Assembly: GCA_035906055.1 (NCBI GenBank)
Contig: JAMIFV010000043.1
Coordinates: 455 to 64,454 of the forward strand
Origin: Alphaproteobacteria bacterium
GTDB taxonomy: Bacteria; Pseudomonadota; Alphaproteobacteria; Rickettsiales; JABCZZ01
DNA: 64,000 bases
Direction: 5' to 3'
Part shown: piece by piece, positions 27,211 to 27,611 of the stretch
Position numbering within the stretch: the stretch's first letter is position 1
Layout of the letters: each line of letters opens with the position of its first letter
Translations under genes and position numbers: made by a program
The notes under the pieces: generated by a model
What the model was told of the DNA's origin: nothing
What the model saw: the letters and a program-made list of their open reading frames with translations, nothing else
The model's database searches: none

Positions 27211-27212
27211 CT

Positions 27213-27250
27213 TGTCACCCCGCGCGAGCAACGCGAGTTGCGGGGTCTGG
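27213..27250. repeat. family D hairpin (inverted orientation), left flank of GIY-YIG gene
   Basis: TGTCACCCCGC-gcgagcaacgcgagtt-GCGGGGTCTGG. The reverse complement begins CCAGACCCCGC and ends GCGGGGTGACA, the same termini as 27568-27596. Confidence 0.6.
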
Positions 27251-27271
27251 CCATACAGCAGGGCGGAACAC

Positions 27272-27583
27272 ATGCAAGAGCATAATTACTATGTGTATAT
27301 TCTTGCCAAAGCGCGCAACAGCACATTTTATGTTGGTGTAACGAATGACTTGATTCGCCGCACATATGAACATAAAGAAGGGCTTGTCGAAGGATTTACT
27401 AGAAAGTATGGCATTAAAATACTGGTGTATTATGAACAACACGCAAGCATTCATGAGGCAATCAGCCGTGAGAAACTGATAAACGCCGGAAACGAAGCCT
27501 TAAAATGCAGGCTATTGAGCGAACCAATCCAGACTGGAATGACCTATATTACCAACTTACCCAACAGCCAGACCCCGCAATAA
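27272..27583 (+). CDS. GIY-YIG nuclease family protein (COG2827/YhbQ-like), probably frameshifted near its 3' end
   Basis: [51 protein letters not shown]...IHEAISREK is a GIY-YIG core. The expected C-terminal motif (..[13 protein letters not shown]) is encoded in another frame from about 27478 to a TGA at 27592-27594. Confidence 0.8.
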
Positions 27584-27596
27584 ATGCGAGGTGACA
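27568..27596. repeat. family D hairpin, right flank of GIY-YIG gene
   Basis: CCAGACCCCGCaataaatGCGAGGTGACA. Nearly identical to 25717-25745. Confidence 0.6.
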
Positions 27597-27611
27597 GAAA
27601 AAGGAATACAT

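Follow-up and report, generated by a model that had tools for sequence, protein, structure and literature searches.

A decayed ssn gene between inverted SRM-type hairpins in an alphaproteobacterial kdsA-eno spacer, and evidence that related cassettes insert as units

The 64,000-nt stretch of alphaproteobacterial DNA analysed here (hereafter, the window; positions 455 to 64,454 of contig JAMIFV010000043.1, assembly GCA_035906055.1) carries the genes kdsA and eno next to each other, with a spacer of 401 nt between the kdsA stop codon TGA (27208-27210) and the eno start codon ATG (27612). This spacer is filled by a 384-bp unit (27213-27596) consisting of a small GIY-YIG gene (PF01541, E=1.4e-13) placed between two inverted hairpins with TGTCA tags, in agreement with an earlier note on this DNA, which had described a GIY-YIG gene bracketed by inverted hairpins in a cassette of about 390 bp inserted between kdsA and eno. 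The comparisons reported below make it highly probable that the spacer holds an inserted, now decayed SRM-ssn-SRM cassette, composed of a gene of the Ssn nuclease family and its cognate hairpins.

The Ssn family was described by Chenal et al. (2025, Nat Commun 16:2388, PMC11893778) as single-domain GIY-YIG nucleases of about 94 amino acids (CDD cd10448) linked to a hairpin repeat, the NTS (CGTCATTCCCGCGMAVGCGGGAATCYRG), which is a longer form of dRS3 and whose generalised form is termed SRM. The genes typically lie in an NTS-ssnA-NTS layout, and SRM copies were reported in 71% of homologue regions and on both sides of the gene in 42%. Purified SsnA proteins from four species bind the motif only as single-stranded DNA (ssDNA) and in only one orientation (tag-first), cutting the strand a few nucleotides upstream (5') of the tag, family members do not cleave double-stranded DNA (dsDNA), and hairpin specificity differs between homologues. 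In N. meningitidis, SsnA activity lowers transformation by NTS-bearing DNA, amounting to a restriction of incoming single-stranded transforming DNA. The same authors noted that the NTS-ssnA-NTS arrangement resembles an insertion sequence (IS) and likened it to IS200/IS605 elements and to repetitive extragenic palindromic (REP) sequences and bacterial interspersed mosaic elements (BIMEs). The layout of inverted repeats around a gene, with gene-less doublets elsewhere, that the earlier note had compared to REP-associated tyrosine transposases (RAYTs) is thus present in the window, but it had already been published, together with that likeness, for the Ssn system (PMC11893778).

Several lines of evidence place the window protein in this family. 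In a tblastn search against PLSDB the window protein hit one N. gonorrhoeae site, the ssnA locus (E=2e-24), and in a BLASTP comparison the window protein and Neisseria SsnA are 48% identical over 89 amino acids without gaps (E=1e-34), well within the homology threshold of E<1e-10 used by Chenal et al. (2025). The N. gonorrhoeae ssnA open reading frame (ORF) encodes 94 amino acids, with Y6, Y17 and E64 placed exactly as in the published mutants, and the equivalent catalytic residues of the window protein are Y9, Y20 and E67. The window protein also has the size expected of a small single-domain GIY-YIG enzyme (about 94-110 amino acids), and SRM hairpins lie on both the 5' and the 3' side of its gene, the left one departing from the published form in loop length alone. 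No specific family model for the window protein was found in NCBIfam; the TIGR01453 match was below threshold (18.3 bits against a cut-off of 56), and a search of the PDB yielded only distant UPF0213 structures (1ZG2 and 1YWL, E=6.6e-5 and 2e-3). Within 3.3 kb around the N. gonorrhoeae gene lie 11 canonical NTS copies. Its presence in PLSDB reflects two 2.17-Mb N. gonorrhoeae chromosomes filed there as plasmids; in the region retrieved (L163; NZ_CP119142.1, 1880219-1883506) ssnA is unannotated and lacks a canonical ATG in frame where the start is expected; before VYILAS the frame reads ATT ATA TGC ACG.

Examination of the gene itself (27272-27594, + strand), delimited by three-frame translation, by Pfam and by homologues spanning both frames, revealed that it has lost its reading frame, a feature that the earlier note had missed. 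The annotated product of 103 amino acids (P0020) is identical to the window ORF, and from residue 71 onwards, where its end is out of frame, it bears no likeness to homologues. The lesion is a 1-nt deletion in an A-run at 27481-27483: adding one A restores the homologous reading, and the next frame, entered at 27481, recovers a sequence 80-83% identical to proteins of 107-110 amino acids, in alignments that cover 99% of it. The protein repaired in this manner has 107 amino acids, with GIY-YIG (residues 5-76) as its sole Pfam domain, and its stop codon TGA (27592-27594) comes from the right hairpin, whose TGACA tag contains it and which overlaps the last 9 codons of the ORF. A second change, likewise overlooked in the earlier note, replaces the nearly invariant W73 by R.

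The frameshift is very probably real and not an assembly error, because two Logan assemblies of different runs show it just as the NCBI contig does. A functional gene at an active Ssn locus, with the shift explained as a sequencing error or overcome by slippage of the ribosome, might be argued from the position of the catalytic Y9, Y20 and E67 upstream of the shift and from the location of the shift in a short A-run. Besides the agreement between assemblies, such a reading has to contend with a run of three A that is not prone to error and is not known as a slippery site, with the change of W73 and a mismatch in the right hairpin stem, and with the single frame found in every close homologue (homologues overall range from 92 to 135 amino acids); we regard it as quite improbable. 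Programmed frameshifting was considered separately and rejected, since G_ATA_AAC is not a slippery site and other marks of decay are present. Lacking the intact reading frame characteristic of the family, the window copy is, as judged from its sequence, a pseudogene, and it therefore maintains nothing at present. In many homologues (among P0001-P0034), as in the repaired frame of the window, the ssn reading frame continues into the hairpin on its 3' side and often ends at the TGA of the TGACA tag, giving C-terminal tails translated from the hairpin such as PDPAINAG, PDPVTSTG and PDPAMRRGD, with many proteins ending in PDPA...AG or PDPAxRRGD.

The left cassette hairpin (27213-27250, sense on the + strand) was located by a perfect-stem scan and reads TGTCA-CCCCGC-(16-nt loop)-GCGGGG-TCTGG. 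It starts 2 nt past the kdsA stop codon, and its enlarged loop contains an inner mini-stem. The right hairpin (27568-27596, sense on the - strand) is TGTCACCTCGCATTTATTGCGGGGTCTGG, the + strand reading CCAGA-CCCCGC-aataaat-GCGAGG-TGACA, and its tag, stem and tail are reverse-complementary to those of the left hairpin, apart from one mismatch in the stem, while its loop differs; the outer 14 nt of the two are 100% complementary. Folding of the cassette hairpins and those of the upstream doublet described below as ssDNA showed that three of the four are more stable than shuffled sequences (z from -3.9 to -5.6; z=-4.2 for the right cassette hairpin), the left cassette hairpin being the weakest (-10.3 kcal/mol, z -1.6). 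With up to 3 mismatches, the motif GACCCCGC-N7-GCGGGGTGAC has 3 matches in the window against 0.07 expected, two of which are both strands of one site, leaving two sites. The published degenerate SRM pattern matches twice in the window (27568-27596 and 25717-25745, against 0.29 expected), and it misses the left cassette hairpin solely through loop length. No Rfam family was found at any of the window hairpins.

Four observations weigh against reading the unit as an Ssn cassette with cognate hairpins. The 16-nt loop of the left hairpin lies outside the published SRM pattern; the window stem is ACCCCGC and not the ATTCCCGC of Neisseria, in a family whose hairpin specificity differs between homologues; the tags of the NTS copies nearest to N. 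gonorrhoeae ssnA face the gene, which sits between two doublets, whereas the window gene lies inside one pair; and the view is limited to 64 kb of the genome, in which setting an intact paralogue elsewhere is possible. Taken with the homology, the catalytic residues and the flanking hairpins, these points leave the gene family, architecture, insertion and pseudogenisation in place, and by these sequence comparisons the window cassette is a decayed member of the published Ssn system.

To place the spacer in an evolutionary context, the closest relatives were retrieved through an enolase search (Eno 88-89% and 83% identical). In the four closest, kdsA is directly followed by eno across spacers of 60, 3, 4 and 23 nt, and none of these spacers contains a cassette or a hairpin, so that the junctions, which the earlier note had singled out for comparison, are empty in all four. 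Because these relatives have spacers of 3-60 nt without the unit, the kdsA-eno cassette is, in this comparison, an insertion. Removal of 27213-27596 from the window sequence would leave a 17-nt kdsA-eno spacer with a ribosome-binding site, formed by the dinucleotide ct (27211-27212) and the right flank (27597-27611, + strand; GAAAAAGGAATACAT), which contains the ribosome-binding site of eno. The kdsA end to the left of the unit (27198-27210, + strand; GAAAAAGAAATGA), possibly one half of a decayed target-site duplication, agrees at 11 of 13 positions with GAAAAAGGAATAC (27597-27609), and the right-hand copy resembles the kdsA 3' end of the relatives; this weak, A-rich repeat could represent either the remains of a target duplication or a chance match. 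Among 80 more distant KdsA loci, eno lies downstream in 38, with a spacer of at most 200 nt in 26 of them, and a GIY-YIG gene occurs in none. The nearest KdsA relatives in a metagenome scan (78-79% identical) are not syntenic with eno and yielded no empty site.

The window also harbors two hairpin pairs without a gene. The first, a tags-outward doublet at 25678-25745, fills the spacer between a histidine-kinase gene and a COQ9-like gene and folds as a whole in ssDNA at -20.1 kcal/mol (z=-6.6). It had been described in the earlier note as an inverted doublet of the cassette hairpin; the doublet exists, but its two members are not the same hairpin. It is a heterodimer whose right member (25717-25745, - strand) is 96% identical to the right cassette hairpin, with an identical core, and whose left member (25678-25706, + strand) has the compensated stem TACCGC/GCGGTA. 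The second doublet (19965-20038), again with tags outward, was absent from the earlier note and emerged from a structural scan combined with ORF positions; it occupies the spacer between rpsG and rpsL, within the str operon. The two members are TGTCATTCCCaCGCAAGCGGGAATCTAG (19965-19992, + strand), with 2 mismatches to the Neisseria NTS consensus taken from PMC11893778, and CGTCATCCCGGCGAAGGCCGGGATCAC (20012-20038, - strand), with a ATCCCGGC stem. Folded as ssDNA, the hairpins at 25678, 25717 and 27568 present 8-bp stems and 5-nt loops after a TGTC tag; the hairpin at 20012 has a CGTC tag with a stem of 8 bp and a loop of 4 nt. Altogether, the window contains six hairpin copies of four different stem types, against about 2.6 matches to the loose definition of the structural scan in random sequence, and in all three pairs the TGTCA or CGTCA tags face outward.

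We then asked how general the pairing of gene and hairpins is, using 80 ssn loci (designated by L numbers) obtained from a family-alignment scan with one genome per species. Most derive from Alpha- and Gammaproteobacteria, and the others from Fibrobacter, Zixibacteria, Dehalococcoidia, Caldilineaceae, Bdellovibrionales and one bacterium of the candidate phyla radiation (CPR); none of the 80 shows kdsA or eno synteny. Under a strict structural definition of the hairpin, requiring GTCA followed by a stem with 6 or more pairs, a 3-20-nt loop and TC, 48 of the 79 loci with enough flank have a sense hairpin no more than about 160 nt upstream, 52 of 76 have an antisense hairpin downstream and 40 of 75 have both, against a background density of 0.12 hairpins per kb. 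By a second measure, an inverted repeat between upstream and downstream flanks scoring at least 30, the association holds in 50 of 75 loci and in 0 shuffles. Both measures place such hairpins on either side of the gene in a majority of loci. Stems vary by lineage with pairing kept (ACCCCGY, ATCCCCGC, ATGCCCGC, ATTCCGGC, ATTCCCGC and others). These results support the view that gene and hairpins form one functional unit and that the link is general across phyla.

A different origin for the hairpins, as host regulatory elements (terminators or mRNA stabilisers) between two of which the nuclease gene came to lie by chance, could draw on the position of all six window hairpins in spacers between co-oriented genes and on the ability of REPs to stabilise mRNA in other bacteria (PMC3733652). 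Its terminator version, which the earlier note had offered as an alternative in the form of shared terminators, did not hold and was excluded: no T-tract follows any window hairpin, a terminator scan calls none of them, and one doublet lies within the rpsL-rpsG operon. For the host-element explanation as a whole, the recurrence of flanking hairpins across phyla (in 40-50 of 75 loci, where about 1% would be expected) and the direct biochemical demonstration of the protein-hairpin link (PMC11893778) make it scarcely credible.

Evidence that cassettes insert as units was obtained at several of these loci. Flanking direct repeats exceed the 99th percentile of cross-locus controls at 13 of 71 loci, with hairpins masked, where about 0.7 would be expected. 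In five of these 13 the repeat is host sequence of 17-34 nt located 6-12 nt outside the tags: L005 (34 nt, detailed below), L034 (33 nt), L008 (23 nt), L068 (20 nt) and L003 (17 nt). Their lengths vary, unlike typical transposon duplications, and what is duplicated in L034 and L003 is the 3' end of the gene upstream, including its stop codon. No short target duplication was detected within 12 nt of 13 strictly defined cassettes; the longer ones appeared with wider windows and hairpin masking.

The clearest case is provided by L005 (4926-5366) and two relatives, L164 (2396-2500) and L165 (2384-2500), with FlhA sequences 96% and 90% identical to that of L005. The flbD-flhA spacer is empty in both relatives. 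In L005 an insert of 373 nt is present, and a 34-nt stretch found once in the relatives occurs a second time as a perfect copy; this stretch includes the ribosome-binding site of flhA together with its start codon and first codons. On different contigs of one gammaproteobacterial metagenome-assembled genome (MAG), the cassettes of L024 (4836-5448) and L029 (4835-5450) share 94% identity across about 612 bp. Their terminal inverted repeats of about 150 nt are built around a long-stem version of the hairpin, and beyond these repeats the likeness ceases, at CTTCCACACGCC... on the left and at ...GGCGTGTGGAAG on the right. In an orthologous spacer upstream of leuA, L011 has a degenerate gene-less doublet (7694-7738) whose core, GACCCCGCAATAAATGCGGGG, is identical to the window hairpin, and the related L020 has a doublet and an ssn cassette (1340-1795). 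From these filled and empty sites we conclude that the cassettes insert as units; what the alignments document is insertion and duplication, not Ssn as the agent. The upstream gene of the cassette is common to L003, L011, L018 and L025, and on that account vertical inheritance of the cassette, in place, is suggested for this clade.

Published biochemistry allows a mechanism to be sketched for an intact enzyme, which would bind each hairpin in ssDNA and introduce a nick on the 5' side of its TGTCA tag, at a distance of a few nucleotides. Because the tags face outward, the nicks are predicted to fall just outside the cassette, one per strand, at about 27210 (+) and about 27600 (-). The cassette itself inserted into a spacer that is short in relatives and has subsequently lost its frame, through the 1-nt deletion, with W73R in addition, as well as one stem base pair, and the two nearby gene-less doublets represent the same hairpin pair minus the gene. 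The nicks may drive the spread of cassettes and doublets or may serve only the restriction of ssDNA, as in Neisseria; both the cleavage positions and the manner of spread are what we infer from the published enzyme and the geometry of the repeats.

Three readings of movement bear on this scheme. In the first, an analogue of the RAYT system, the GIY-YIG nuclease itself would move the cassette as an autonomous element and the gene-less doublets as non-autonomous derivatives. It accords with a single gene enclosed in hairpin-shaped terminal inverted repeats, with the absence of the window cassette from relatives, with the L005 insert and its perfect 34-bp duplication opposite the empty flbD-flhA spacers of L164 and L165, with the four further cassettes of the same geometry between host direct repeats of 17-33 nt, with the two copies in one MAG whose homology spans the whole unit and nothing beyond it, and with the orthologous spacer that holds a doublet in L011 and a cassette in L020. 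In addition, no transposase was found for the CGTC-tagged REPs (Di Nocera 2013, PMC3733652), and the same idea was raised by the Ssn authors (PMC11893778). On the other side, the insertions leave the acting enzyme unnamed, long duplications of variable length (17-34 bp) are unlike those of a dedicated transposase, and the common upstream gene in L003, L011, L018 and L025 suggests vertical inheritance. GIY-YIG enzymes are hydrolytic nucleases, and we know of no strand transfer or covalent intermediate among them. Finally, the window gene is dead, and the sole demonstrated role of the family is the restriction of transforming ssDNA (PMC11893778). Weighing both sides, we consider a RAYT analogue a real possibility, albeit short of probable. 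The claim of the earlier note that the GIY-YIG protein mobilises or maintains the hairpins thus survives in the link between gene and hairpins, but mobilisation is a hypothesis and maintenance does not apply to a dead window copy.

The second reading invokes a classical homing endonuclease, cutting dsDNA at empty sites into which the cassette would be copied by recombinational repair. GIY-YIG homing endonucleases of the I-TevI type exist, and the weak TIGR01453 match, below threshold, might be taken to point in that direction. The window protein, however, consists of a single domain without a DNA-binding module, and its gene lies in a chromosomal intergenic spacer, unlike the joined nuclease and DNA-binding domains, encoded in introns or free-standing in phage, that characterise homing endonucleases. 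Moreover, the host sequences at the sites of insertion are unrelated, L005 has a 34-bp target duplication of a kind that homing does not leave, and members of the family do not cut dsDNA (PMC11893778), all of which renders homing very improbable.

The third reading, a bolder extension of unit insertion, is that SRM-ssn-SRM cassettes are true mobile elements, with unusually long, variable target duplications of 17-34 bp near gene ends, doublets as non-autonomous forms and Ssn cutting the ends; we put it forward tentatively, as a conjecture that is rather unlikely on present evidence. Were it true, the CGTC-tagged REPs (dRS3, RPE-4/6 and others) would gain the dedicated enzyme whose absence was noted in 2013, and a transposition route using a hydrolytic nuclease would be defined. 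For the annotation of the window, the "GIY-YIG nuclease" becomes a dead ssn gene, and the hairpins around it, like the two other pairs, become Ssn-related motifs and not terminators. Beyond the window, the comparative work adds clean pairs of filled and empty sites at which cassettes insert as a unit, with at least one insertion accompanied by a 34-bp target duplication, and an identification of SRMs with the "orphan" CGTC-tagged REPs of 2013, set out below; these points make the question of how hairpin repeats spread directly testable. As a separate observation on the neighborhood, a 637-aa ORF directly downstream of eno (28999-30912) has no Pfam match at E<=0.001.

Compared with known systems, the window protein shares the minimal GIY-YIG fold of about 95 amino acids with UPF0213/YhbQ proteins and Slx1-type domains (PDB 1ZG2, 1YWL), but its sequence similarity to them is only distant, and to our knowledge no association with hairpin repeats exists for those proteins. 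The likeness to RAYTs and their REP doublets (REPINs) is one of layout: a gene lies between inverted hairpin repeats and gene-less inverted doublets are dispersed elsewhere (the cassette, 25678-25745 and 19965-20038), and, as in the IS200/IS605 type, an Ssn-type enzyme recognises hairpins in ssDNA. It does not extend to the enzyme, which is no HUH/Y1 transposase but a GIY-YIG nuclease unrelated in fold and chemistry, nor to the tag, which is CGTC or TGTC and not GTAG. IS200/IS605 elements make no long target duplications, in contrast to some ssn cassettes.

The closest counterpart is the Ssn/NTS system, with which the window has in common a small single-domain GIY-YIG protein with the catalytic Y, Y and E kept, hairpins on both sides of the gene, gene-less hairpin copies nearby and one near-canonical NTS. 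It differs in that the window gene is a pseudogene, in its main hairpin type (an ACCCCGC stem with a 5-7-nt loop, or 16 nt in the left copy), in the low density of hairpins (6 copies in 64 kb) and in the position of the gene, which in the window and in most other loci lies inside one tags-outward pair, whereas N. gonorrhoeae ssnA lies between two such doublets.

The hairpins themselves fit the CGTC-tagged REP superfamily of Di Nocera, De Gregorio and Rocco (2013, BMC Genomics 14:522, PMC3733652), which includes dRS3 of Neisseria and RPE-4/RPE-6 of Rickettsia. Those repeats, found mainly in Alphaproteobacteria, have an unpaired tag that is often TGTC, a stem of 8-9 bp whose first pair is A-T, a loop of 4-5 nt and a short tail, occur mostly as inverted dimers, often heterodimers, and "lack a dedicated transposase" (PMC3733652). 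The window hairpins show this succession of tag, stem, loop and tail, with an enlarged loop in the left cassette copy, and both window doublets are heterodimers; the second stem pair of the main window type is C-G where T-A is usual. Here and in the Ssn paper the associated enzyme is a GIY-YIG gene, whereas none was found for the repeats in PMC3733652, and the main text of the Ssn paper (PMC11893778) does not cite the 2013 classification. As a synthesis of this analysis, we propose that the two descriptions concern the same elements, and that SRMs are CGTC-tagged REPs.

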